Origin: Candidatus Magasanikiibacteriota bacterium
Lineage (GTDB): Bacteria; Patescibacteriota; Patescibacteriia; Magasanikbacterales; UBA922
Direction: 5' to 3'
NCBI GenBank assembly: GCA_016193335.1
Contig: JACPSK010000001.1
Location: forward strand, 422,962-486,961
Length of the DNA: 64,000 bases
The notes under the pieces: model-generated
The model's database searches: none
What the model was told of the DNA's origin: nothing
Seen by the model: the letters and a program-made list of their open reading frames with translations, nothing else
Made by a program: the position numbers and the translations under genes
Shown here: positions 3,521 to 58,886 of the stretch, in pieces
Position numbering within the stretch: position 1 is the stretch's first letter
Layout: each line of letters begins with the position of its first letter

Positions 3521-5098
3521 TTAAATCAAAGGTCTTCCGGTCATCTCTTTGGGCGCTTTTACTCCCAAAATAGAAAGCACAGTCGGGGCCACATCCGCGA
3601 GCATGCCCACCGGATGAAGCAAACTCAAATCTCCGTTCGGCGGATCTCCGGCAGGGCCGCTCTGTCCATGATAGGCAGAACCGACAATGAGGAGAGGCAC
3701 CGGATTGGTGCTGTGTTCTTTATCTTTCTCACCGGTTTGCAAATTGATTACTTCTTCCGCGTTTCCATGATCGGCCGTAATGATGAGCACACCACCCTTG
3801 GCCAAAATTTGTTCGGCAATCTGTCCCAGGGCCTTGTCAACGGCCTCGCATCCTTTAATGGTCGCGGCGAGATTTCCTGTATGGCCCACCATATCCGCGT
3901 TCGCGAAATTAAGCATAATCAGATCATAAGAATCTGAATCTATGGCTTTGAGTACCTGCTTGGCGATTTTCAAAGCCGACATTTCCGGTTCTTTGTCATA
4001 AGAAGATACTTTCGGAGAAGGAATAATTTTACGATCCTCACCTGGGAAAGGATCCTCAATCGTGCCATTTATGAAAAAGGTAATGTGCGCGTACTTTTCT
4101 GTTTCAGCTATATGAAATTGTTTCAAACCTTTTTTACTTATCACTTCGGCGAGACAATTCGTTACCACCACTGGCGGATATGCCACCAAAACCGGTATGT
4201 CTTTTTCGTATTCTGCCATGGTCACAAACAAAAAATCTTTTATGGTTTCCCTGTGAAATTTGGCAAAGCTCGGCAGGGCGAATGCCTCAGTAAGCTGGCG
4301 GGCTCGGTCTGGTCTGAAATTAAAAAAAATCGCCGCGTCGCCTTTTTCAATCCTCGCCACCGGCTCATCCGCTTTGCCCATGACAACCGGCACGAACTCT
4401 TCATCAAAAATTCCCTTGTCATAAGAAGCCTTTACCGCGTCTTCAGGGTCTTTGTAATATTCGTCAGAGATTCCTTCGGCCATGGCCCGATAGGCCTTTT
4501 CAATTCTATCCCAACGGTTATCTCTGTCCATGGCCCAGTATCTTCCTGAGACAGAAGCAATCTCGCCTACTTTTATTTTTTTCATTACTTTTTGAAGAGC
4601 TTTCACAAAATCAATTGCGCTCTTTTCTTGAGTGTCGCGACCGTCGAGTATGGCGTGGACAAAAACTTTTTTTATTTTCTGTTTTTTGGCAAATTCCAAA
4701 AGAGCGTATAGGTGATCTTGGGCAGCGTGCACATTCCCCGGACTCAGCAAACCTATAAAGTGTAACCGCGTTTTTTGTTCTCTTACATGTTCAGCAGCTC
4801 TTAAAAAATTTTCATTTGAAAAAAAAGATTTATCCGCGATGCTCTTATTTATTCTGGGAAAAGTTTGATAATACACGCGACCCGCGCCAATGTTCAGATG
4901 TCCGACTTCCGAGTTGCCCATTTCACCGAAAGAAAGCCCTACTTCATTTCCAGACGCGTAAAGAGTCATGGCCGGATATTCTGCCATAAATTTATCCACG
5001 TTGGGCGTGTTGGCTCTCGCGATTGCGTTGCCTTCATGATCAGGCGCTATGCCCCAACCGTCAAGAACCGCGAGAACCACTGGTTTAGGATGGTCCAT
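3521..5098 (-). CDS. gpmI: 2,3-bisphosphoglycerate-independent phosphoglycerate mutase
   Basis: MDHPKPVVLAVLDGWGIAPD..NSEVGHLNIGAGRV; full-length iPGM. The ORF could extend to 5122. Confidence 0.9.
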   Translation of the reverse strand: MDHPKPVVLAVLDGWGIAPDHEGNAIARANTPNVDKFMAEYPAMTLYASGNEVGLSFGEMGNSEVGHLNIGAGRVYYQTFPRINKSIADKSFFSNENFLRAAEHVREQKTRLHFIGLLSPGNVHAAQDHLYALLEFAKKQKIKKVFVHAILDGRDTQEKSAIDFVKALQKVMKKIKVGEIASVSGRYWAMDRDNRWDRIEKAYRAMAEGISDEYYKDPEDAVKASYDKGIFDEEFVPVVMGKADEPVARIEKGDAAIFFNFRPDRARQLTEAFALPSFAKFHRETIKDFLFVTMAEYEKDIPVLVAYPPVVVTNCLAEVISKKGLKQFHIAETEKYAHITFFINGTIEDPFPGEDRKIIPSPKVSSYDKEPEMSALKIAKQVLKAIDSDSYDLIMLNFANADMVGHTGNLAATIKGCEAVDKALGQIAEQILAKGGVLIITADHGNAEEVINLQTGEKDKEHSTNPVPLLIVGSAYHGQSGPAGDPPNGDLSLLHPVGMLADVAPTVLSILGVKAPKEMTGRPLI

Positions 5099-5198
5099 AG
5101 AAAAAACATCTTGAAAAATCAATTCCTTCTCAATAGATTTTTGAAATTTTAACTTTCAATTTATAAATTTTTAAACAATCTTAGAGAATGATCCTCGC

Positions 5199-6797
5199 TC
5201 AATATCTGCCCAAGAGAGAGGCGCCGGTCATTTCTTTCGGCTTTTTTATGTTCATCAATTGTAGCAATGTAGGAGCCACATCGGCAAGCCTCCCGGTCCT
5301 TTTGCGGCAGCGCCTGCCTTTGAGATCCTGCCTAACCACTACAAAAGGTACCATATTGGCGGTATGCTCAGTTAAAGCTTCCCCGCTTTTTTCGTCAAGC
5401 ATGGTTTCCGCGTTTCCATGATCCGCCGTGATTATCACCTGTCCATATCTTTTCAAAACCGCCTGTACCAACCGATGGACTTGTTTATCAAGAAGCCGTA
5501 TGGCTCTCTGAGCCGCCTGGATATTCCCCGTATGACCAAGCATATCGGCATTAGGAAAATTTACAGCCACAAAATCATATTCCTTTTTTCGTATGTGCTC
5601 AAGTATTCGGGACGCCACAGCGCTCGAACGCATGCCCGGATTCTGTATATACGAATATTCATCCCCGGAACGAATGAGCTCCCGTTTTTCTCCATTGATT
5701 GGCTGAGGATAGCCACCATTGATAAAATAAGTAACATGAGCGTATTTTTCTGTCTCAGATATGTACAATTGTCTATAGCTTGAACCTATGGCCTTGGCCA
5801 GGCACTCTGATATATCCGGGCTTGGAAAAGCGGTAAGCATATTGGGAAGATCCGGACCAAAATCCGTCATAGCTACAAAACGTATATCTTTGGGCCAACG
5901 TTTTCTTTTGAATGATCCTGGATTTTTTTTTGCGAAATCAGGCTGGACAAAAGCCTTGGCCAATTGCCGAGCTCTGTCGCTCCTGGCATTGAAAAAAAAC
6001 ACAGCGTCATTGTCTCCTACCGTGGCTATGGGACGCCCGGCTTTGCATATGATACTCGGCTGTATATATTCATCATTTTCACCTCGGTTGTAAGCTTCGG
6101 CTATAGCGTCTTCCGCGCTTCCGTCTTTGAGACCAGAACCCAAAACCATGGCATGGTAAGCCTTCTCGGTCCTCTCCCATAATTTATTCCGATCCATGGC
6201 GTAGAAACGTCCGATGACAGTGGCGATTTTCTCGCCATTCTTCATGCGCGCTCTCAGGTTGCTGAGATATCTAACCGAAGAATGGGGAGAAGAATCTCGT
6301 CCATCAGTAAATAAATGCAAAAAAACTTTTCTATGTTTATTCCTTCTGAAATAATCCAAAAGGGCGTAAAGATGATCTGGATGAGCATGGGCGCTCTGCC
6401 CATCAGTGAGCAAACCCATAATATGGGCGGCTGTATTGTGTTTTTGTATGTGACACAGAGCTTGGTGAAAAGCTTCATTTTTAAAAAAAGTGCCGTTTTT
6501 GATCGCTTCGGAAATCATCAGCAAATCTTGTTTAAGCACCCGACCGGCGCCGATGTTTAGATGCCCTGCTTCGGAATTTCCGGCTTGCCCGGGAAACAAA
6601 CCGACATCAACTCCGTGCGCCTTAAGACGGGCGCTGGGATAAGAACGCAGATATTCAAATATATGAGGAGCCTGCGCCGGAGTTATGGCGTTTCCTTTAC
6701 GAGTGAAATCGGCCAAGCCGAAGCCATCCAAAATAATAAAAAGAGTGAGCCGCTTTTTATTATCATCACTTATCTTTTTTTTAGTTTTTATTACCAT
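5199..6797 (-). CDS. second, divergent iPGM-family paralogue (phosphoglycerate mutase-like, alkaline-phosphatase superfamily)
   Basis: LFIILDGFGLAD..GNSEAGHLNIGAGRV and a C-terminal ADHGNAE motif. It lies in tandem with gpmI. Confidence 0.8.
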   Translation of the reverse strand: MVIKTKKKISDDNKKRLTLFIILDGFGLADFTRKGNAITPAQAPHIFEYLRSYPSARLKAHGVDVGLFPGQAGNSEAGHLNIGAGRVLKQDLLMISEAIKNGTFFKNEAFHQALCHIQKHNTAAHIMGLLTDGQSAHAHPDHLYALLDYFRRNKHRKVFLHLFTDGRDSSPHSSVRYLSNLRARMKNGEKIATVIGRFYAMDRNKLWERTEKAYHAMVLGSGLKDGSAEDAIAEAYNRGENDEYIQPSIICKAGRPIATVGDNDAVFFFNARSDRARQLAKAFVQPDFAKKNPGSFKRKRWPKDIRFVAMTDFGPDLPNMLTAFPSPDISECLAKAIGSSYRQLYISETEKYAHVTYFINGGYPQPINGEKRELIRSGDEYSYIQNPGMRSSAVASRILEHIRKKEYDFVAVNFPNADMLGHTGNIQAAQRAIRLLDKQVHRLVQAVLKRYGQVIITADHGNAETMLDEKSGEALTEHTANMVPFVVVRQDLKGRRCRKRTGRLADVAPTLLQLMNIKKPKEMTGASLLGRY

Positions 6798-11750: not shown

Positions 11751-12398
11751 TTATTTCAGTTGTTCGGCGACTTCGGAGACAAAATCGCATGCCTGTTTTT
11801 CTATACCCTCGCCCAGCTCATAACGCACAAAGCGACGAATACTTATTTTCTCCCCTATTTCGACCGTTTTTTCTTGCAACAATTGTTCTATGGTTTTGTC
11901 TTCATCTTTTACGAATTTTTGTTCCAGAAGACAAATCTCCTGATACCATTTTGCCAGTTTTCCTTCAAGAATTTTTTCCAACATTTCCGCCGGTTTGCCT
12001 TCATTTTTGAGTTGTTCGCGATACACGTCTTTTTCTTTTTCGATTTCTTCGGCAGATACTTCTTCTCGAGAAAGATATTTTGGAGAAGACGCGGCTATAT
12101 GCATGGCAATGTCCTGAACCAAGGCGCTGAATTGTTCATTGCGGGCCACAAAATCCGTTTCGCTATTTACTTCCACGAGCACGCCTATTTTGCCGCCGGC
12201 ATGAATATAACTCGCCACTTTGCCTTCGGCCGCTATTTTGCCCGCGCGCTTGGCAGCTTTGGCTATGCCCTTTTTCCTAAGGATTTCTACCGCCTTTTCA
12301 AAATGGCCGTTTGCCTCGTCCAAAGCCTTTTTGCAATCGAGCATCCCTGCTCCGGTTTGAGTTCTAAGTCTGGAAATATCTGAAACCTGTGTAGACAT
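11751..12398 (-). CDS. tsf: elongation factor Ts
   Basis: SRLRTQTGAGMLDCKKAL…; the start is taken at MSTQVSDISRL. Confidence 0.9.
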   Translation of the reverse strand: MSTQVSDISRLRTQTGAGMLDCKKALDEANGHFEKAVEILRKKGIAKAAKRAGKIAAEGKVASYIHAGGKIGVLVEVNSETDFVARNEQFSALVQDIAMHIAASSPKYLSREEVSAEEIEKEKDVYREQLKNEGKPAEMLEKILEGKLAKWYQEICLLEQKFVKDEDKTIEQLLQEKTVEIGEKISIRRFVRYELGEGIEKQACDFVSEVAEQLK

Positions 12399-12569
12399 AA
12401 TAGAAATACGTATTAACCACTCCACGACAATCTGCGGCAGACTGGGGAGAGCCAAATTGAAAATTGTAATTTTTGAGAAAATTAAAGTCGCGATAAGCTA
12501 CAAAATCAGAAGCATGCGAAAACTCTATTTTCTCTCCCAAAAGACGAGACGAGGAAACGGGATTGAAAT

Positions 12570-13352
12570 TTATTGATCCGAAGCCACGGCAGCTTCAGAC
12601 GGCACGGGTTCGGCGATCTTCTTCTCTTCGACTTTAGAAGACTTGCCGCTTTGCTGTTGTTTCTTTTCCCATTCTTCTTTTCCGCGCTTCACCGCTCCGG
12701 CAACCAAATTCACCAACAAAGTAATGGATTTCACCGCGTCGTCATTGGCAGGAATGACATATTCCACTTTGTCCGGATTCGCGTTGCTGTCGCAGATACC
12801 TATAATGGGTACGCCCACGCGCCGCGCTTCTGCCAAGGTTGTTTTTTCTTTCTGAACCGCGGGGAGAAACAAAGCGTCCGGCATGCGTTCCAAAGTGGAA
12901 AGACCTTCCAAGTAGGAACTCATTTTCTCAACTTGACGCGCGATCTCCAACTGTTCTTTTTTTGTGTAGAGTTCAAAAGCTCCCTGAGCCTGCTTTTCTT
13001 TGAGATCATTGTATTTTCTGATCAGTTTTCTGATTTCAGAAAAATTGGTAAGCATGCCGCCCAGCCAACGATCCACGAGGTACGGCATGCCCACTTCAAT
13101 AGCCGCTTTTTTTACGATTTCTCGAGCCTGAGCTTTGGTGGAAACAAAAAGTATCTGTTTGCCTTCGGCAGCCATTTTTTCCACGACCGCGAGCACCTCT
13201 TTGAGCTGTTCCAAAGTTTTCTCTAAATTAATAATATGGACGCCGTTACGCTCCATATATATGTATGGTTTCATTTTCGGATGCCAACGAGATACCTGAT
13301 GCCCAAAATGGGCTCCGGCCTCGAGCATGTCCACGAGACTGGGAAGATTCAT
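12570..13352 (-). CDS. rpsB: 30S ribosomal protein S2 with a charged C-terminal tail
   Basis: MLEAGAHFGHQVSRW, then a C-terminal tail EEWEKKQQQSGKSSKVEEKK. Confidence 0.9.
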   Translation of the reverse strand: MNLPSLVDMLEAGAHFGHQVSRWHPKMKPYIYMERNGVHIINLEKTLEQLKEVLAVVEKMAAEGKQILFVSTKAQAREIVKKAAIEVGMPYLVDRWLGGMLTNFSEIRKLIRKYNDLKEKQAQGAFELYTKKEQLEIARQVEKMSSYLEGLSTLERMPDALFLPAVQKEKTTLAEARRVGVPIIGICDSNANPDKVEYVIPANDDAVKSITLLVNLVAGAVKRGKEEWEKKQQQSGKSSKVEEKKIAEPVPSEAAVASDQ

Positions 13353-13520
13353 AGAAAATATTTCCTTTATCCTCCTCCATCCTGCCCGCGCGCGTCTTGG
13401 CGCTTTGGGAGGAAATAAAATGGATAGAGTGAGGGATATAAATTAAGTATGCGCAAAGTGTATAGGATACTTAAAATTTTGTCAATGCTAATGTATCAAA
13501 ACTTGAATCTTAAAATTTCA

Positions 13521-13613
13521 CAAAAGAACTGTTTCAGGAGACTGCGGAGCGCGATCTGGCGCGAGCCTGAGCGAAAATTCAGCAGAATTTTACGCGTGCT
13601 CCTGAAACAGTTA
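13521..13613. repeat. perfect 14-bp inverted repeat (aactgtttcaggag / ctcctgaaacagtt) enclosing a 65-nt GC-rich loop
   Basis: Read directly from the sequence. It lies upstream of rpsB on the minus strand, adjacent to the GC island. Confidence 0.5.
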
Positions 13614-13662
13614 TTTTGTGAAATAAAATTTTAAAATAAATAAAAACACTTAGAAATGAAGA

Positions 13663-13700
13663 AGGACGGCCACGCATCTGCGCAACCGTCCTTCCAAGGG
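13663..13700 (-). terminator. candidate intrinsic terminator for the GC-rich gene
   Basis: On the minus strand: gaaggacgg…ccgtccttc (9-bp GC stem) followed by a U-rich tract. Confidence 0.35.
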
Positions 13701-13726
13701 TAGCTTCTGCCACCCTACTCCTTACT

Positions 13727-15322
13727 TCACTTCTTTTTGTTCTTACCACCACCCTTCTTCGGGTGGTCCTCCTTGGCCGGCGCCTCGGGCGCGGGGACCT
13801 GGTCCGAGGCCGTGGGCACCTCGACCTGATCGGCCGCGGCCTCCGCCACCTCGTCGGGGACGGACGGCATGGTCTCCGCGGCATCGGCCTCGGCCGTGGG
13901 CTCCGTGGCCAGGACGACCTCGGTGGCCGGCTCCGGCGCGACGGCCATGCCCTGGTCGGCCTTGGCCACCGCCTCGTCCTCGACGACCGACGTGGGCTCC
14001 GCCACAAGGTCAGCAGACGCGACCGGCACCGCCTTCGGCTCCCGCTTGGGCTCGGGGAGGCCGAGCTTCCGGCGGACCATGCGGTCCAGCTCGGTCGAGC
14101 TCATACCCCCCGCGGCCTTACGGAAGGCCTCGGCCACCGGTTCGACCCGATCATCCGCGGGGTTCTCCTGGTGGTGCTTGGCCTGGCGCTCGGCCGCGGC
14201 CTCCTTGAGGAGGCGCGTGACATCGAGGTTCCCGAGATCCGCGTCCTCGGGGAGAGCATCGACGATGCGCCTCGCCGACTTGTTGGCGGACTTGACGGTG
14301 GGCACGCCGCCCATCCTCACCAGCCGCTCCCCGATCTCATCCACGAGTCGCTTCTTCGCCATGCGACGCGTGCGCTTGGCCTCGTCGGCCTCGGCCAGCG
14401 CCAGGAGCTCGGCACGCTCGGCCTCGATCTCCTCGCGGCTCCGCGGCCGGGGCATGCTGAAGAGCATGGCCAGCTCGGGGAGCTTGCGGGCCTCCCGAGC
14501 GATATTCATCTTCTGCGGGTCATCGGCGCTGATCTCTCGGATCTGTTCCTTGGTCATCACGCCGTGAGCCCGGAAGACCCTCTCCAGCTTGTCGAGCAGA
14601 TTCTGGAGCGTCCGAACCCGCTCCCGGTAGAGGCCGACGGCCTCGCCGGTGAGGTTCGGCTGGTCCTTCCGGAGCATGCCCTGGAGCTTGCGCATGTGCA
14701 TCTCCGTGAGGATGACGAAACGCATACCCGCGGACCACTTGGCGTTCCGCCAGACCAAGTCCGGGAAGATCCCGGCCAGCTCGGTCCGCAGGGGGTGCCC
14801 CACCTCGATGGGCCCGCGCTCCGGCGGCGGGGCGACCACGCGGGCCGTCTGTCCGCCCTCGTCCGCCAGCATGGCCGTGCCGGCCTTCGAGTGGCCGTTG
14901 CCACCGACCTTGCCCTTGGGGGTCTCGACGGCGGGCGGCGGGGCCACGGGCGCGGGCTCGGCGGGCTCCTCGTCGTCCTCGAACAGGAAGGCCATGGCCG
15001 CGGCCTGGGCCGCCTTGGCCTCGGCGATCTGCGCCTCGACGCCGCGCTTCCACTTCGTGACCATGAGGCCGCGACCCTCGGGGGTCGCGAGGAGATCCTC
15101 GGCCTTCATCGCAGCCAGACCGCGGAGGATCCGCTCGGACTTGGCCTTCGCCGCCTCGTCCTTGGCCACGGCCTGTTCGGCCTTGGCCTTCGTCGTCTTC
15201 TCCTCGATCAGCTGGACCGCGGTGGCCAGCAGCTCCTCGTTCGTGGGCTCACGGACGGTCGTGCCGTCCGACGTGAAGAAACCCGACTCGGATGCCACAA
15301 CCGCCTGCGTCTCATCGCTCAT
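13727..15322 (-). CDS. hypothetical acidic Ala/Glu/Lys/Pro-rich protein (~533 aa) in a high-GC island; no family recognised
   Basis: Continuous minus-strand ORF with G/C at nearly every third codon position. The start is taken at MSDETQAVV, and the tail ends KKGGGKNKKK. The flanks are AT-rich. Confidence 0.55.
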   Translation of the reverse strand: MSDETQAVVASESGFFTSDGTTVREPTNEELLATAVQLIEEKTTKAKAEQAVAKDEAAKAKSERILRGLAAMKAEDLLATPEGRGLMVTKWKRGVEAQIAEAKAAQAAAMAFLFEDDEEPAEPAPVAPPPAVETPKGKVGGNGHSKAGTAMLADEGGQTARVVAPPPERGPIEVGHPLRTELAGIFPDLVWRNAKWSAGMRFVILTEMHMRKLQGMLRKDQPNLTGEAVGLYRERVRTLQNLLDKLERVFRAHGVMTKEQIREISADDPQKMNIAREARKLPELAMLFSMPRPRSREEIEAERAELLALAEADEAKRTRRMAKKRLVDEIGERLVRMGGVPTVKSANKSARRIVDALPEDADLGNLDVTRLLKEAAAERQAKHHQENPADDRVEPVAEAFRKAAGGMSSTELDRMVRRKLGLPEPKREPKAVPVASADLVAEPTSVVEDEAVAKADQGMAVAPEPATEVVLATEPTAEADAAETMPSVPDEVAEAAADQVEVPTASDQVPAPEAPAKEDHPKKGGGKNKKK

Positions 15323-15497
15323 GGTCGCAATCTCCAATCGAACGCCGATGCGTTCGATATCAAAAAAATTAAGAACACACTCAAAAGCCTCGCAAACCCA
15401 AGGTACGACCCCAAGAAAGCGTGACTCGAGCCAGAGACTATAGCGAATGATAATGAATTTGTCAAGTATAGGCCTCAACAGAGCGAAAAAATCGCCC

Positions 15498-15526
15498 TTG
15501 ACAGCGAAAAAGCCGAGTGTTATACT
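15498..15526 (+). promoter_or_regulatory. consensus sigma70 promoter TTGACA-17-TATACT
   Basis: TTGACA at 15498-15503, a 17-nt spacer, then TATACT at 15521-15526, ~40 nt upstream of the rpmE ATG. Confidence 0.6.
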
Positions 15527-15564
15527 GTTTTAACTTTACTTATCTAGAATTTTGCGAGCAAAGT

Positions 15565-15933
15565 ATGAAGCAAAATATCCATCCGAAATCTCACCCCGTG
15601 GTTTTTGTGGACAGCTCTTCTCATACGGAATTTATCACCACTTCCACTTTAAGTTCAGAAAAAACCAGAGACATAGACGGCCTCACTCATTTTGTAATCC
15701 CCATAGAAATTTCTTCTGCCTCTCATCCCTTTTTCACGGGCAAACAAATCTTGGTGGACACTGCCCGGCGCGTGGAAAAATTCAAAGAAAAAATGGAAAA
15801 AGCAGTAAAGGCTTCCGGCGAGCGCAAAGGCAAAAAAGTAAAACGAGTAGCCCGCGCCAAAAAACAAGGGGATAATGAAAATGAAATTGAAAAAAAGAAA
15901 ATAGAAGAAGTAAAAGCCAAAGAAACAAAATAG
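15565..15933 (+). CDS. rpmE: 50S ribosomal protein L31 (type B-like, no Cys motif) with a Lys-rich C-terminal extension
   Basis: MKQNIHPKSHPVVF…SHPFFTGKQ, then a KK-rich tail. The track ORF from 15517 starts inside the promoter. Confidence 0.8.
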   Translation: MKQNIHPKSHPVVFVDSSSHTEFITTSTLSSEKTRDIDGLTHFVIPIEISSASHPFFTGKQILVDTARRVEKFKEKMEKAVKASGERKGKKVKRVARAKKQGDNENEIEKKKIEEVKAKETK

Positions 15934-15946
15934 CTAAGCGCAATGA

Positions 15947-15976
15947 TAAAACAGGCTTCTTTGGCCTGTTTTTGAT
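15947..15976 (+). terminator. intrinsic terminator after rpmE
   Basis: aaaacaggc-ttctttg-gcctgttttt. Confidence 0.6.
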
Positions 15977-16113
15977 TTGAGAAATGAGCCACGCCTCTTG
16001 GACTTATTTTAAAAAATGGAATCTACAAAAATACAGAACAGAATCATAATCCTTGAGCCTCTCAAAGCTTTAGACGCGAGCGAGGTCTTCTCATTCACTT
16101 TAATGGATATCCT

Positions 16114-43130: not shown

Positions 43131-44747
43131 ATGAAAGAACAAAGTACCTACACGCATATCGCCTCTTACGAGCCCAAGGATCCGAGCGAAGTAAAACGAG
43201 TGGTGCTCCTCTACTCCGGCGGACTCGATACTTCGGTAATGCTCAAATGGATTCAAGACAGATACCACGCGGAAGTGATAGCTCTTTGCTTGGACATTGG
43301 CCAGCTTGCCGATGACCTGGAATTTATAAAACAAAAGGCGCTTAAACTTGGCGCGATCAAAGCCATTGTGCTCGATTGCAAAGACGAATTCGCTGACAAA
43401 TATATTTCCCGGGCTATAAAAGCCAACGCCTGCTACCAGGGAGACTACCACCTCAGCACGCCCATCGGCAGACCTCTTCTCGCCAAAAAAGCGGTGCAAA
43501 TCGCTTTTGAAGAAAAAGCCGACACGATAGCCCACGGCTGTACGGGCAAAGGCAATGATCAGGTCCGCTTGGAAGGCACCGCCGTTACGCTCAATCCGGA
43601 CATCAAAATTATCGCCCCTGTCCGCGAATGGGGCATGGGGAGAGACGAAGAAATAGCTTACGCGGAAAAACACGGTATTCCCATAAGCCATAGCGCAAGC
43701 AAGCCCTACAGCCATGATGACAATATGTGGGGCGTAACCAGCGAAGGCGGAGAAATAGAAAATCCGGAACTCATCCCGCCCCTCGAAAATATTCTTGAAA
43801 TAAGCACTCCGCCCAAAAAAGCTCCGGATCAGGAAGAATTGGTACATCTCGAATTTGTAAAGGGCCTACCAGTTTCTCTCAATGGAGAACAAATGAAACT
43901 GAGCGAATTGGTCATACGGCTCAATCGCTTGGCCGGCAAACATGGGGTGGGAATCGTGCACCATCTGGAAGACAGGGTGGTGGGTTTGAAAGTTCGAGGC
44001 TTGTACGAACAGCCCGCGGCTCATGTCATTATCAAAGCACATAAAGAACTGGAAAAATACGTCTGTACCCGGCATGAAAACAAATTCAAAGAATTGGTAG
44101 ACCAAGAATGGGCATACCTGTGCTACGGAGCGCTTTGGTACGAACCGCTCATGAAAAATCTTTCCGGTTTTATAGACACGGTGAATGAAAAAGTAAATGG
44201 CACGGTAACCCTAAGACTGTACAAAGGAAATTGCGACGTGGTGGCTCTCAAAACTCCTGATGCCCTGTTTGACGAAAAACTGGCCACCTTCAATAAAAAC
44301 GATTTGTTCAATCAAAATGCCTCACCCGGTTTCATTGAGCTGTGGACTTTGCAAATGAAGATGGCTCGACAGACCAAAAAAAATATCCTGTTTACGGTGA
44401 GCGGAGCAAAAAAACAAGAATTACTTCAAAGTATGCGAGACTTGCAAAAATTAAATTGCATATTGTACGCCACCAAACATACCAGCGAATTTATGGAACA
44501 GCATGACATCGTCAACAAACTGGTGCACAAAATTTCAACCCAAGAAAGGCCGAACATTGAAACGCTCATGCGAGAACGCCGTTTTGACCTTATCATCAAT
44601 ATACCTTCTCCAGAAGGAAACGGAGAACAAAAAACCGATGGGGAAAGAATGCGAGAACTGGCCGTGGAGCACAATGTCCCTCTCGTCACTGACGTGGATG
44701 TGGCCAAAAGCATGGTGGAAAAACTCAAACAAATATACGAACGCTAA
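43131..44747 (+). CDS. argG: argininosuccinate synthase fused to a C-terminal MGS-like (CarB C-terminal type) domain
   Basis: N-terminal part: VLLYSGGLDTSV…AHGCTGKGNDQVR (ArgG). The C-terminal ~130 aa (ILFTVSGAKKQELLQ…LYATKHTSEF…DLIINIPS…) resembles a methylglyoxal-synthase-like domain. Confidence 0.8.
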   Translation: MKEQSTYTHIASYEPKDPSEVKRVVLLYSGGLDTSVMLKWIQDRYHAEVIALCLDIGQLADDLEFIKQKALKLGAIKAIVLDCKDEFADKYISRAIKANACYQGDYHLSTPIGRPLLAKKAVQIAFEEKADTIAHGCTGKGNDQVRLEGTAVTLNPDIKIIAPVREWGMGRDEEIAYAEKHGIPISHSASKPYSHDDNMWGVTSEGGEIENPELIPPLENILEISTPPKKAPDQEELVHLEFVKGLPVSLNGEQMKLSELVIRLNRLAGKHGVGIVHHLEDRVVGLKVRGLYEQPAAHVIIKAHKELEKYVCTRHENKFKELVDQEWAYLCYGALWYEPLMKNLSGFIDTVNEKVNGTVTLRLYKGNCDVVALKTPDALFDEKLATFNKNDLFNQNASPGFIELWTLQMKMARQTKKNILFTVSGAKKQELLQSMRDLQKLNCILYATKHTSEFMEQHDIVNKLVHKISTQERPNIETLMRERRFDLIINIPSPEGNGEQKTDGERMRELAVEHNVPLVTDVDVAKSMVEKLKQIYER

Positions 44748-53835: not shown

Positions 53836-55584
53836 TCATTTAACTCTATTCTGAATTTCTTTCTGGAGCCTGGCCACAAATTCTTTTTTGGAAATCATTT
53901 CCTGGTCTGCTTGCCCCCGGAACCGTATGTTCCAATCCTTGCCGCTGATTTCGTTTTCCCCCACTACCACAATGTATGGAATTTTTTGTTTCGTGGCTTT
54001 GCGAATTTTTTTGCCCACGGTCTCGTCTGTACTGTCCACTTGAACGCGAATGTTTTGCGCTTTCAATTCATCGGCGAACCGCTTTGCTCCATCCGCATGT
54101 TTGTCATTGGACACGGGAATAAAATGGACTTGCACGGGCGACAGCCACAAAGGAAAATTGCCTGCCGTGTGCTCTATGTACACGGACAAAAACCGCTCTA
54201 TGGAGCCCATCAGCGCGAAATGAACCATAACCGGTGTTTTATCTTCTCCGTCTTTGTCCGTATAGGTCAAGCCAAAACGAGCCGGCTGTACAAAATCAAG
54301 CTGTGGAGTGGCCACCTGCCATTCGCGGCCAATCGCGTCCAAGGCCATGAAATCTATCTTCGGGCCGTAAAAAGCCGCTTCTCCAAAGGCCTCGTAATAA
54401 TCAAGTTCATTTTTCTTTGCTATATCAAGAATGATACTCTCGGCTTTGTCCCATAACGCCGCTTCTCCCAAATATTTTTCCGGCTGAGCTTTATCCCGAT
54501 ACGACAAACGCGCGCGGAGCTTCATACCAATGGTTCCATAAAACTCTTTTACCACTTTTATGAGAGCCCCATATACTTCTTCAATTTGTTCGGGCGTGCA
54601 AAAGGTGTGGCTGTCGTCCTGGGTTATCGAACGCACGCGGGAAAGCCCCAGTAATTCTCCGGCCTTTTCATCGCGGTAAATCGTGGTCGTTTCCATAAAT
54701 TTAAGCGGCAAATCACGGTAACTCCGAGGTTCTGACGCGTATATCTGCTGATGATGCGGACAATTCATGGGTTTCATTACCATTTGATCATCCGTTTCCT
54801 GGCTCTTTACCAAAAATAATTCAGCGCCGAATTTGGCCCAATGTCCGGAGGTTTCGTATAATTCTTTTTTCGTGATATGCGGAATCCAGACTCTCTGATA
54901 TCCGATCCCAACGCGCAAATCTTCCGAATAACGAGTGAGTTCGTCGCGGAGTACGGTTCCTTTTGGAGTAAATAAGGGGAGACCGGAGCCTACCATTTCC
55001 GAAAAAGTAAAAAGTCCCAATTCTTTTCCGAGTTTCCGATGATCGCGCTTTTTAGCTTCTTCGAGCATGTTTATATAAGCATCCAACTCCTCTTTAGTCG
55101 GGAAACAGGTTCCATAAATTCTGGTCAGCATCTGGTTTTTTTCATCCCCGCGCCAGTAGGCCCCCGCGACCGACAAAAGCTTGAAATGCTTCATGTCCTG
55201 ATAAGGTTTCTCGCAATGCCCGCCTTTGCAAAGGTCCACAAAATTTCCCGGATCATTGATCGTTATTTTTTTGCCCTTTTTGGCGAATTCCTCAAGAAGT
55301 TCCAATTTATAAGGATTATCCTGAAAGAGCATCCTTGCTTCATCAAGATCCACCTCTTTATGTTCGAAAAATTTCCAACTCCTTACGATTTCACGCATTT
55401 TTTCTTCAATTTTTGGAAGATCATTTTCTGAAATTTTTACCCTGCCAAAATCAAAATCCTGATAAAATCCATCTTCAATAGAAGGCCCAATAGCGTTATG
55501 GGTCCCCGGCCACAATTCTTTAACAGTCTTGGCGAGCAAATGGGCGCAGGAATGACGGAGATTGTTGAGATGTTCTGAATTCAT
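53836..55584 (-). CDS. thrS: threonyl-tRNA synthetase
   Basis: HSCAHLLA (editing domain), class II motifs, and a C-terminal anticodon-binding domain. Confidence 0.95.
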   Translation of the reverse strand: MNSEHLNNLRHSCAHLLAKTVKELWPGTHNAIGPSIEDGFYQDFDFGRVKISENDLPKIEEKMREIVRSWKFFEHKEVDLDEARMLFQDNPYKLELLEEFAKKGKKITINDPGNFVDLCKGGHCEKPYQDMKHFKLLSVAGAYWRGDEKNQMLTRIYGTCFPTKEELDAYINMLEEAKKRDHRKLGKELGLFTFSEMVGSGLPLFTPKGTVLRDELTRYSEDLRVGIGYQRVWIPHITKKELYETSGHWAKFGAELFLVKSQETDDQMVMKPMNCPHHQQIYASEPRSYRDLPLKFMETTTIYRDEKAGELLGLSRVRSITQDDSHTFCTPEQIEEVYGALIKVVKEFYGTIGMKLRARLSYRDKAQPEKYLGEAALWDKAESIILDIAKKNELDYYEAFGEAAFYGPKIDFMALDAIGREWQVATPQLDFVQPARFGLTYTDKDGEDKTPVMVHFALMGSIERFLSVYIEHTAGNFPLWLSPVQVHFIPVSNDKHADGAKRFADELKAQNIRVQVDSTDETVGKKIRKATKQKIPYIVVVGENEISGKDWNIRFRGQADQEMISKKEFVARLQKEIQNRVK

Positions 55585-55925
55585 ACAAAAAATATATAAA
55601 GGTTTTATACCTGTATTATCTCCTCAGCTCGGAAATGGAAAAACTACCATTTTTCCATTTCGCTCGCCTACGTCGATAATAAAAACCCCGATACGCTTCT
55701 CTGCACGACGCATAGAGACGTATCGGGGCCCTAAATTTTTAGGACGGTTCCACCCGACATTTTACTTATATGGCATGTCCCGACACTCCCGAAGTGGTGC
55801 CTGGCGCTGTCTCTGAAGATGGCTCTCAATGTTGCCATCTCTCCCTGTCAGAGATTGTTACGCTGGACTGGTTTCGGTTCAAACGTGTCAACATAAACAT
55901 TACTCCAGCTCAAAATCCTTGTCAA
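55585..55925 (-). promoter_or_regulatory. thrS promoter (TTGACA-17-TAATGT, 55897-55925) plus a ~310-nt leader with a T-box-like core and terminator; candidate T-box riboswitch
   Basis: The minus-strand leader contains aaaatgtcGGGTGGaACCGtcc (T-box consensus AGGGTGGnACCGCG), followed by a ccccgatacg…cgtatcgggg hairpin and then TTTTT. Confidence 0.45.
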
Positions 55926-55938
55926 GCGCTCTAAAATC

Positions 55939-57090
55939 TTATTCAACTTGGCGTAAAACAATCTGCACATGATCTCCCACATGGGGCACGGTGCGATTCC
56001 ACAAGGGTCTAAAATTCGTATCCACGCTCTGCACATGATCAAGAGAAAGCAAATACCTTCGCACTTCATCTTCTGTTTTTCCAAAAAACATGATTTTTTG
56101 AAGATCTTTGCTGTTTGGATCAAGAGTCGCCAGAGCGCTAAAAGAAACTTCGAGCGTAGCTTCCCATTTTTCTACATTGTAATCACCCAAGGCCGCCGAA
56201 GGTTCGAGATCACTTGATTGTATCATTTCATTGGAATCCACGATTTGTTTTCCAAGCATGGTAAGAGCTTGGGACTTCAGTTCGGCCTCATCGTACAGTA
56301 CGCCAAGGGCAGTGGCTCTGCCCTTCAATGTAAAGGAATCTGTTTCAGTTCCCACTTCGACATCTGATTCCACAAGCTTTTGAATCAATGAAACGAGTAC
56401 CTTCTTGTCTGGAAACTTTTCTTTGAAAAGTGTTTCCGCCTTTTTCTTTAACTCTTCTTCTACCAGTACAGACGCGGAATCTATGTCCTCTTTACTGACT
56501 ATGCCCACCTGTTTGATCCCACCGGACATGGATTCCAAACTTTTGGCGTATATAACTTTTTGCAAAGTCTGATTAAGACCAGGAATAATAAAATCACCAG
56601 GGGGGATATCACCGCTTGGTCCCGACTGATCCGCGTATACTTCCGCCTCAATGGAGGAAGCGGCCGGAACCAAAACGCGCTGTTTTAGTCTAAATAAAAC
56701 TTGATCTTTATTCAAAAGACGGGTGGTGGCGACGAGGGGCTGGTCCGCGGATCCATCATTATACAAGGTTACCCGTCCGGATGCTATGCCGTTTTCTTCG
56801 CGAACACCTTTTGGTTTAGCCGTTTGCTCGTCGGTCACCACGGTACTGGTAACAAACCCGGATACAGGGCTTGCTTTTACTTCTTCCAACCTTCCCAGAC
56901 TGACGGAAAAATGAGTTTCCACTGGCTCCGGCTTAGTCGTTACCGTGATAGTAGCCCGTTTTGATGACATAAAAACAATCAGAGCGAGTAAAATTATGGT
57001 AAGCACCAAAAAAGATAAGGCAACGAATTTATAAAATCGAACAGGCTGTCCCAGGGGATCATTTATCTGGCCTCTTTTCTTATGAACCAT
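55939..57090 (-). CDS. hypothetical membrane-anchored protein, possibly pilus-associated
   Basis: An N-terminal TM helix; immediately downstream of the pilB-like gene on the same strand. Confidence 0.4.
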   Translation of the reverse strand: MVHKKRGQINDPLGQPVRFYKFVALSFLVLTIILLALIVFMSSKRATITVTTKPEPVETHFSVSLGRLEEVKASPVSGFVTSTVVTDEQTAKPKGVREENGIASGRVTLYNDGSADQPLVATTRLLNKDQVLFRLKQRVLVPAASSIEAEVYADQSGPSGDIPPGDFIIPGLNQTLQKVIYAKSLESMSGGIKQVGIVSKEDIDSASVLVEEELKKKAETLFKEKFPDKKVLVSLIQKLVESDVEVGTETDSFTLKGRATALGVLYDEAELKSQALTMLGKQIVDSNEMIQSSDLEPSAALGDYNVEKWEATLEVSFSALATLDPNSKDLQKIMFFGKTEDEVRRYLLSLDHVQSVDTNFRPLWNRTVPHVGDHVQIVLRQVE

Positions 57091-57107
57091 ACGAAAAAGG
57101 AAAAAAA

Positions 57108-58856
57108 TCATTCAATAACCCTAAATATTTCTTCAAGACTCGTTACTCCGGCGAGCGCTTTCAATATTCCGTCTTGAACCATGCTCAACATGCCATTTTC
57201 CTTGGCAATGGCCGCAACTTCAAATTCGGTTACCACGCCGGATGAAAAAGCGGCTTCTATTTTTTCATCCACTTTAAGCAATTCAAATATTCCTATTCGT
57301 CCTTTGTACCCCAAACCACTGCACTCTTTGCAAGCTTGAGGAAGATAGAAAAACAAATTTTCAAGAGACGGAATCTTGTCCCTTTCAGGCAATTGCGATA
57401 GATGATGCATTACTTTTTCTCGGAGACCAGATTCAAACGACTCTAATGATACCTTTTTTTTGCAAGTTTTACAAATTTTCCGCACCAAGCGCTGGCCTAT
57501 AAGGAGATTAAGTGCGGCACTCAGCAAAAAAGGCTTGGCGCCGATGGATAATAACCTCGGTATGGCCCCTGCCGCTGTGTTGGTGTGAACGGTTGAAAGC
57601 AAGAGATGCCCGGTCAGCGCGGCCTGCACAGCGATATCCGCAGTTTCGAGATCTCGTATTTCACCAACCATTACGATATCCGGATCTTGTCTCAAAAGAG
57701 CGCGGAGTCCTTTGGCAAAGGTATAATCTTTGTCCCGATCTATTTGACTCTGGTTAACACCGGCCAAGCGATATTCCACCGGATCTTCCAAAGTAATTAT
57801 TTTGACATCCGGCTTATTCAAAATACGCAAAATCGCGTACAAACTGGTGCTCTTCCCGCTCCCAGTAGGGCCGGTGGCGATTATCATCCCGTTTGGGCGC
57901 GCTATTTCCTGTTTGATAATATCAAGCCTATAGCCAACCAGACCGAGCTCATCCAAAGTAATCCCCTTTTCACTTTGTCTCAAAAGACGCATCACTACGC
58001 TCTCTCCGTGCATGGTGGGAATAATGGATACACGAACATCCACTTCCCCTCCCTCGGCCTTTATGGTAAATCTTCCGTCCTGCGGCTTGTCCGTTATATT
58101 TATTTTTAAGGAAGCAATCAATTTGATGCGAGAAAGTAATTTCTTGGGAGCTTCTTTAGGCAATTCTGCCACATCATGCAGGATGCCGTCTATCCTAAGA
58201 CGAACCATTACTCTGTTCTCTTCATTTTCAATGTGAAGGTCAGAAGCGTCTAATTTTAAACCCGCCGCCAAAATAATAGTGAGGATGTCAGTAGTCTGTT
58301 TAAGATGCAAAGCTTCCTCAACGCCCTCAAAATTGTGTATATCGGCTTTTACGGATTCGATATCAGTGGCTTCAATTTCAAGATTCTTGCTGATAGGTTT
58401 GATGATGGGCAAGGTATTGTACAAATTCAAAACATGAGCAAAGCTCGCTTCTGAAATAATATACAGAGCTCCTTGAGCATGATTGCGCTCTTCTATTTCA
58501 TGAACGAGTTCGTCCACTTCATCATTGTCAGGATCCAAGGTTCCTATTCTAAACTCATCCGGCGTTATAAAAAAACAAATACTTCGCAAACGCTTCGCTC
58601 TTTCAAGATCTATTTGGCGCAAAGCTTCCTGGCTGATCGGAAATTTTTCCAAATTAATATAAGGATACGCCCCGCCCAAATCTTCGGCTGTCCGTTTTGT
58701 CTCCACTTCAAGCTCATGTCTCTTTATTTGAGCCATCTTTTTGGTGAAACGTTCTTCAGTGTCTTTGGAAGCCACCGAAAGGCCGGAATGACTTTGAGCA
58801 GGATTCTTTCCTTTCTTGCCAGACAACAAATCATCAATAGAAGGGAGAACACTCAT
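57108..58856 (-). CDS. type IV pilus / type II secretion assembly ATPase (PilB/GspE family)
   Basis: Walker A motif GPTGSGKST; Asp box, Walker B and His box (…VGEIRDLETA…TGHLLLSTVHTN…); a C-terminal tetracysteine (CKTCKK…CKEC). Confidence 0.85.
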   Translation of the reverse strand: MSVLPSIDDLLSGKKGKNPAQSHSGLSVASKDTEERFTKKMAQIKRHELEVETKRTAEDLGGAYPYINLEKFPISQEALRQIDLERAKRLRSICFFITPDEFRIGTLDPDNDEVDELVHEIEERNHAQGALYIISEASFAHVLNLYNTLPIIKPISKNLEIEATDIESVKADIHNFEGVEEALHLKQTTDILTIILAAGLKLDASDLHIENEENRVMVRLRIDGILHDVAELPKEAPKKLLSRIKLIASLKINITDKPQDGRFTIKAEGGEVDVRVSIIPTMHGESVVMRLLRQSEKGITLDELGLVGYRLDIIKQEIARPNGMIIATGPTGSGKSTSLYAILRILNKPDVKIITLEDPVEYRLAGVNQSQIDRDKDYTFAKGLRALLRQDPDIVMVGEIRDLETADIAVQAALTGHLLLSTVHTNTAAGAIPRLLSIGAKPFLLSAALNLLIGQRLVRKICKTCKKKVSLESFESGLREKVMHHLSQLPERDKIPSLENLFFYLPQACKECSGLGYKGRIGIFELLKVDEKIEAAFSSGVVTEFEVAAIAKENGMLSMVQDGILKALAGVTSLEEIFRVIE

Positions 58857-58886
58857 AACTATAAACAAATTAAGCCAGACAAAAAT

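Follow-up and report, generated by a model that had tools for sequence, protein, structure and literature searches.

The leader of thrS in the 64,000-nucleotide stretch of a Candidatus Magasanikbacteria contig analysed here (in full length referred to as the window) is, judging from its sequence and predicted folds, very probably a T-box-type tRNA-sensing riboswitch that acts by transcription attenuation and would read tRNA-Thr(GGU). This threonine T-box leader is a known mechanism in a new, pared-down structural variant; by analogy with the T-box paradigm, it would bind its tRNA and sense whether the latter is aminoacylated. The regulated gene (53836..55584, minus strand) encodes a threonine--tRNA ligase (ThrRS) of 582 amino acids with tRNA-synt_2b and HGTP_anticodon domains and without the N-terminal TGS domain. 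The protein has a 100 % identical counterpart in Candidatus Magasanikbacteria, and the host is thus a bacterium of the candidate phyla radiation (CPR). The leader lies on the same strand as thrS, between a promoter (55925-55897) and the ATG at 55584; all leader features below are on this minus strand, and paired segments are given in 5′ to 3′ direction. An earlier, sequence-only reading of the same DNA had proposed a leader of ~310 nt (measured here as ~306 nt, from a presumed start near 55890 to the ATG) in a CPR-like genome, together with a promoter TTGACA-17-TAATGT, a T-box core, a GC-rich 10-bp hairpin followed by TTTTT, and an ACC triplet as threonine specifier, and these elements were indeed recovered where it had placed them.

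The T-box sequence GGGUGGAACCG (DNA GGGTGGAACCG) is located at 55755-55745, 161 nt upstream of the thrS ATG, and constitutes the only exact match to the core GGGTGGNACCG in 64 kb. It is embedded in an antiterminator (the discriminator core, 55721..55759) that, when folded alone (-15.8 kcal/mol), consists of helix A1 (UGUCGGG 55759-53 / CCCGAUA 55727-21), a 7-nt T-box bulge UGGAACC (55752-46), and helix A2 (GUCCUAA 55745-39 / UUAGGGC 55734-28). The competing structure is an intrinsic terminator (55681..55728), the GC-rich hairpin of which (55728-55686; -29.9 kcal/mol, z = -6.1) is formed by CCCCGATACG at 55728-55719 and CGTATCGGGG at 55695-55686 (RNA CCCCGAUACG/CGUAUCGGGG), with its stem extended by UCUCU/AGAGA, and is followed by U5 at 55685-55681; a terminator scan missed it because the loop exceeds the length allowed by the scan. 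The 5′ arm of the terminator comprises the last base of A2 and the complete 3′ strand of A1, which renders both structures mutually exclusive. In a fold of the full 3′ domain, it is the terminator that forms (-36.4 kcal/mol). The off state is the default, with the antiterminator requiring stabilisation from outside, exactly the logic of a T-box.

Upstream of this domain, the minimum-energy and the centroid structure agree on a Stem I of ~108 nt (55782..55889; -35.5 kcal/mol, z = -2.5), and the fold of the whole leader stands out from shuffled sequences as well (z = -5.97). The stem begins with P1 (GACAC/GUGUC, 55889-85/55786-82), continues across an asymmetric, GA/K-turn-like internal loop (GUUUGAA 55884-78 opposite GA 55788-87) into P2 (CCGAA/UUCGG, 55877-73/55793-89), the Specifier internal loop, the short helices P3 (55868-66/55801-799) and P4 (55863-60/55807-04), and P5 (UCUCUGA/UCAGAGA, 55854-48/55816-10), and ends in a distal platform region (55824..55847) with a 7-nt AG bulge CAGGGAG (55847-41), the distal helix P6 (AGAUGGC/GCCAUCU, 55840-34/55823-17), and a 10-nt apical loop AACAUUGAGA (55833-24). 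The Specifier loop displays ACCAC on its 3′ side, and with it the threonine codon ACC (55798-55796) and, directly behind, a conserved purine, A (55795); these four bases remain unpaired in the minimum-energy fold. P3 allows for two registers, with GYC/GGY immediately next to ACC or with CC(A)/(U)GG at a distance of one base, and its assignment is ambiguous in this respect. Between Stem I and A1, there is an unstructured linker of 22 nt (55760..55781) that carries the purine string AAGUAAAA (55767-55760) at its end. The promoter itself is composed of a -35 box TTGACA (55925-55920), a 17-nt spacer, and a -10 box TAATGT (55902-55897; entire element 55897..55925); it was assigned by reading the sequence and escaped a consensus promoter scan because its -10 box fits TATAAT at 3/6 positions only.

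This anatomy is supported by comparison. Exact-protein look-ups of ThrRS homologues with 69-81 % identity provided ten distinct related leaders (L082-L086 and L089-L093), each of 170-270 nt and each with ACCA, GGUGGAACCG, and a terminator with U5-U8 (10/10); the arrangement TTGACA-17-TAnnnT also recurs at the equivalent position in all ten. Most of these leaders, when folded singly, independently reproduce the architecture of Stem I. In a MAFFT alignment of the 11 leaders including that of the window, ACCA and GGTGGAACCG are invariant at a mean column identity of 47 %. The distal AG bulge is conserved as a 7-nt CAGRGAG, and so is the 10-11-nt apical loop ending in UGAGA, which differs from the double T-loop consensus GNUGGUGAAA. 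One member, L092 (1809-1980), is devoid of the distal half of Stem I; its K-turn-like loop and its Specifier internal loop are still there.

The structure derived from the window (Stem I and antiterminator, 45 pairs) was then tested against this MAFFT alignment, which had not been curated: 82.6 % of cells are paired, as compared to 35-46 % when the 3′ partners were slid by 1-3 columns. Pairs that change on both sides amount to 30/45 (slid controls: 11-18), the covariation score reaches 0.387 (slid controls: at most 0.128), and 0/500 shuffles attained the observed values. Covariation is seen in P2, P4, P5, and P6, the latter two flanking the AG bulge: one position of P5 alternates between G-C, U-A, and C-G, and in the distal helix 7/7 pairs change on both sides with 91.5 % of cells paired. 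The antiterminator shows the same behaviour, with pair 2 of A2 being U-A in eight leaders, C-G in two, and U.G in one, and with one pair of A1 changing from G-C (ten leaders) to A-U in L090 (CAGG/CCUG). RNAalifold recovers the distal helix and the terminator independently, the latter with covariation at 7 pairs. A structure-guided hand alignment gave 436/467 paired cells; it is biased towards the structure and therefore taken as support only.

RNAalifold also proposed a pairing of its own, between the specifier segment GGUACCACU and the T-box GGGUGGAACC (window 55801-55793 / 55755-55746; columns 135-144 / 208-217 of the alignment named A2), and ACCA, that is, the specifier with its purine, resembles a tRNA 3′ end. 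This self-sequestering fold was not adopted: all columns involved are invariant, so that covariation speaks neither for nor against the GGUACCACU/GGGUGGAACC pairing.

If the leader works along the lines of known T-boxes, transcription would start ~7 nt past the -10 box, and Stem I would fold first and display ACC (with its A) in the internal loop, ready for pairing with the GGU anticodon of tRNA-Thr, while the AG bulge and the apical loop at the tip of the stem would probably stack on the tRNA elbow. The 3′ end of an uncharged tRNA (predicted as UCCA) would then pair with UGGA of the 7-nt bulge and thereby stabilise the weak antiterminator, allowing RNA polymerase to continue into thrS. With charged tRNA, or none at all, the 3′ strands of A1 and A2 would be captured by the far more stable terminator and transcription would stop at the U run. 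The UGGA in the bulge predicts U73 as the discriminator base of the tRNA. No tRNA gene of any kind is found in the 64-kb window, the genome measuring ~0.69 Mb. About 1.7 kb downstream of thrS in one close relative, a tRNA-like sequence with a good T arm and acceptor stem (L083:4307-4377, minus strand) scores 31.9 bits with the tRNA-Sec model (cut-off 47; local search E = 1e-4) and is not called by ARAGORN; it may represent an atypical tRNA.

Several observations weigh against the assignment as a T-box, first of all those made with the Rfam model. At gathering thresholds, no Rfam family is found in the 64-kb window, and RF00230, the model by which the sequence-only reading proposed to check its claim, remains at 13.6 bits (E = 1.3) with a cut-off of 93; among the relatives, it reports L089 only (27.5 bits). 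Furthermore, a K-turn sequence is convincing in the window, L091, and L092 only, the loops of the other relatives being different or longer. A tRNA-Thr gene was not found in the window or in the fetched CPR loci, which contain just tRNA-Val and tRNA-Leu, so that GGU and U73 are to be read as predictions. Finally, Stem III, which reviews describe as universal, is missing here according to sequence and folding: none of the 11 leaders has such a hairpin, and the linkers fold with 0 to -2.9 kcal/mol in 9/11 cases, with no advantage over their shuffles, and the two exceptions carry an unrelated insertion beside Stem I.

The low RF00230 scores can be traced to a number of defining sub-motifs in which these leaders deviate from the canonical T-box. 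In the T-box paradigm, the terminal G.U pair of A2 serves as the steric sensor of the aminoacyl group; here, the closing pair of A2 is G-C in 11/11 leaders. This is considered a rarer but functional variant (PMC11404447). As summarised in the literature, further T-box features are the K-turn, the S-turn, a platform of double T-loops, a Stem II domain, and Stem III with 5′-RRRxG...AA-3′ flanks, besides the G.U at the base of A2 (PMC7583486, PMC11404447). An S-turn (loop E, AGUA/GAA) is not recognisable above the specifier in these leaders, where CCAG(U/C)C on the 5′ strand faces a 3′ strand that has GG(U/C) right before ACC and is free of GAA, and the 22 unstructured nucleotides between Stem I and A1 leave no room for Stem II with its IIA/B pseudoknot. 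The purine string AAGUAAAA is the counterpart of the RRRxG...AA flanks around Stem III, however in fused form with no hairpin in between, and is found as a contiguous AAAG-YR-AAAA in 11/11 leaders (alignment A3). A long-range substitute for Stem III, in which the segment after Stem I would pair with the 4-5 nt that precede CGGG (in the window, GACAU/AUGUC), was considered and rejected: a complement of 3-5 bp exists in most leaders, at shifting positions and at about chance level.

Despite its score, the RF00230 alignment (obtained in E-value mode) runs over the full length of the element, with model positions 1-219 on 55890-55721. UGA...GA falls on the base of Stem I, where it is matched by GUUUGAA opposite GA in the window and likewise in L091 and L092, ACAGGGAGA on the AG bulge (AGAGA in the model), and GGGUGGAACCG on the T-box; the distal hairpin and the specifier region are correctly in place, AAGU precedes the Stem III position, and the positions of Stem II and Stem III are deleted. 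The sequence-only reading, which had called the arrangement of antiterminator and terminator canonical, did not notice the deviations in Stem II, Stem III, the S-turn, and the closing pair of A2. As a refutation of its claim, it had named the joint absence of an Rfam match and of a foldable Stem I with specifier; the former is absent, whereas Stem I, the specifier, and the mutually exclusive antiterminator are all present in minimum-energy folds, and this second, more important part speaks for the sequence-only reading.

The missing parts raise the question of whether the leader might be a decayed or repurposed T-box relic without tRNA sensing, left behind as a constitutive attenuator or one controlled by a protein, for example, bound by ThrRS itself. 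The absence of Stem III and the S-turn and the loss of Stem II would fit this scenario, as would the statement in reviews that Stem III occurs in all known T-boxes and that an antiterminator without it binds no tRNA appreciably (PMC7583486). A further point in its favour is a second hairpin between the terminator and the thrS ATG (55632..55661), a perfect 12-bp stem GAAAUGGAAAAA-UGGUAG-UUUUUCCAUUUC (-19.1 kcal/mol, z = -4.4; unique in the window), the loop of which contains the threonine anticodon GGU and is reminiscent of the operator mimic of Escherichia coli thrS. This hairpin is, however, lineage-specific and missing from all related leaders, and it may lie outside the switch proper. The residues expected to contact the tRNA, ACCA and UGGAACC, are invariant in 11 leaders with a mean column identity of 47 % otherwise, the geometry of the 7-nt bulge and both helices are kept by compensatory changes, and even the purine string that would flank Stem III is itself conserved. 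This tight conservation makes a decayed relic unlikely.

Regardless of this question, the loop of the second hairpin (U-GGU-A) resembles positions 33-37 of tRNA-Thr(GGU), a likeness that could be due to chance or reflect a mimic bound by ThrRS. Since the hairpin is not conserved, the reading as a ThrRS operator mimic is speculation.

Returning to the interpretation as a tRNA-sensing T-box, its distribution was followed beyond the closest relatives with a discriminator covariance model (R1) built from the 11 leaders (alignment A3), which has a single hit in the window (67.9 bits, by construction). A scan of a genome collection with the ThrRS alignment, in which the relatives among the matches listed have at most 53 % identity and mostly belong to Bacteroidota, yielded four distant CPR leaders (L003, L005, L014, and L029), all with UGGA in the T-box bulge. 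R1 has hits directly upstream of thrS in Doudnabacteria (L014: 29.4 bits, E = 0.005) and, among Saccharimonadia, in two genomes (L003: 25.4 bits, E = 0.03; L029: 20.2 bits, E = 0.34), and in ~60 thrS loci of Bacteroidota serving as negative controls it returned one spurious partial match only. The four leaders differ in their build: according to folding, L014 (2290-2430) and L029 (1240-1390) have an ultrashort Stem I with ACC in a 7-nt terminal loop, L029 and L005 (2200-2440), both from Saccharimonadia, possess a clear canonical Stem III, and L014 is without Stem III like the clade of the window. Among the other CPR thrS loci sampled, many are without a T-box element. The distribution of T-boxes in CPR is patchy and their architecture variable. 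A metagenome scan with a pattern of the distal region of Stem I merely added a twin of L086 and one chance hit in a coding region (L087).

These distant leaders also bear on the mode of action, as T-boxes outside Firmicutes are often translational (PMC7583486) and the ultrashort Stem I of L014, L029, and L005 is typical of that class, in which, as in Actinobacteria, tRNA binding frees the ribosome-binding site. For the leader in the window, such a mechanism is very improbable: the alternative helix is a GC-rich hairpin with U5-U8 in 11/11 leaders, and the terminator ends 96 nt before the ATG with no Shine-Dalgarno sequence sequestered, the sole GAGGAG lying downstream of the terminator. That the leader is a plain intrinsic terminator or attenuator, ending an upstream operon or damping thrS and carrying a T-box-like 11-mer by chance, is scarcely credible, for although no Rfam match reaches the gathering level and near-matches to GGGTGGNACCG are not rare in the window (5 with one mismatch vs 2 expected), a conserved promoter separates the upstream gene from the leader, the motif in its exact form occurs just once in the window, at the place expected of a T-box, 10 other genomes show both conservation and covariation of Stem I, specifier, and antiterminator, and further CPR classes likewise have the motif in front of thrS.

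Taken as a transcriptional T-box, the element invites a broader proposal, the chances of which we consider about even: that the thrS leaders of the Magasanikbacteria-like clade and of Doudnabacteria form a natural minimal class of T-boxes, in which a discriminator made up of the fused purine string and A1-bulge-A2 with its G-C closing pair works with no Stem III hairpin and no Stem II and nonetheless senses a non-glycyl tRNA, and that CPR/Patescibacteria regularly employ T-boxes for regulation, which the Rfam model does not see and which have therefore escaped annotation to date. If true, the minimal class would contradict the view of Stem III as universal and indispensable. The element, with its ~200 nt, represents a natural deletion experiment on the T-box, in which the Stem III hairpin is gone and the purine flanks, the bulge, and both helices are under selection, and it makes the question of what a minimal aminoacylation sensor requires directly testable. 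CPR bacteria have tiny genomes and few recognisable regulators, and a conserved switch in this position would indicate that amino-acid-responsive control has been retained for at least one synthetase. There is also an annotation gap: RF00230 puts these leaders 65-80 bits under its cut-off, and the collections of TBDB rest, according to the paper describing it, on the Rfam model and a model for Actinobacteria, so that they would escape Rfam-based pipelines as well as resources such as TBDB that are built on this model. More T-boxes in CPR would probably come to light with a covariance model specific to the clade. Within the library searched, no relevant literature links T-boxes or riboswitches to CPR, Patescibacteria, Parcubacteria, Saccharibacteria, or TM7, and within the same scope both T-boxes in CPR and a class without the Stem III hairpin appear to be undescribed.

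The genomic context of the leader is shared with its relatives. In the window (55939-58868, minus strand) and in L089-L093, a gene for a PilB-like T2SSE ATPase and one for a protein of ~380-390 amino acids without Pfam hit precede the T-box leader and thrS in conserved order. Three other relatives (L082:2489-2977, L084:276-764, and L085:1495-1983) carry an open reading frame (ORF) for a 162-amino-acid protein of the Asparaginase family (PF00710) between the T-box leader and thrS; in these, the threonine T-box controls a two-gene operon, the first gene of which is missing from the window. Pfam scans of 20 of the largest ORFs in the window found no aminoacyl-tRNA synthetase gene besides thrS.

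Elsewhere in the window, a GC-rich island at 12000-16000 (0.544 vs ~0.44 elsewhere) contains long ORFs on both strands, among them one (13727-15478, minus strand) whose 583-amino-acid product is of low complexity, has a high content of Ala, Glu, and Pro, and finds no match in Pfam. Two tandem paralogues of cofactor-independent phosphoglycerate mutase adjoin enolase at 3521-6797 (minus strand), with PGK further along the same strand, and the gene at 43131-44747 (plus strand) encodes an argininosuccinate synthase with an MGS-like domain fused to its C-terminus.

Among the systems described so far, the closest counterparts are found in Bacillus subtilis, where the T-boxes of thrS and thrZ likewise use the specifier ACC, as would be expected of a threonine T-box. 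These class I transcriptional T-boxes (RF00230) share with the leader in the window the regulated gene, ACC with its purine, the UGGNACC bulge, and the competition of antiterminator and terminator before the coding sequence. They differ, as judged by the canonical consensus (PMC7583486), in having Stem II, the IIA/B pseudoknot, Stem III, the S-turn, and the G.U pair of A2, all of which the leader in the window is without. In its general build, the latter also recalls the glycyl T-boxes of glyQS, which combine a long Stem I carrying AG bulge and apical loop with a single-stranded, purine-rich linker and have no Stem II domain, the missing Stem II being described as a feature of glycyl T-boxes (PMC7583486); in streptococcal glyQS, even the G-C closing pair of A2 is known (PMC11404447). 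The glyQS leaders, however, keep Stem III with its RRRxG...AA flanks and have a Gly specifier, whereas here the flanks are fused and the specifier is that for threonine. The translational T-boxes of actinobacterial ileS, with their ultrashort Stem I, illustrate how drastically this stem can be shortened outside Firmicutes and resemble the thrS leaders of Saccharimonadia and Doudnabacteria with ACC in a 7-nt terminal loop; the leader in the window, by contrast, has a long Stem I, an internal Specifier loop, and a terminator, and is without the Stem II domain that the ileS class needs. Finally, the translational operator of E. coli thrS, a mimic of the tRNA-Thr anticodon arm bound by ThrRS, concerns the same gene and a related, tRNA-Thr-based RNA logic, the sole resemblance to it in the window being the unconserved hairpin 55661-55632 with its UGGUAG loop. 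The mechanism, however, is of another kind altogether: in E. coli, hairpins that act as mimics next to the ribosome-binding site are bound by a protein, whereas the leader described here shows a codon, not an anticodon, and ends in a terminator.

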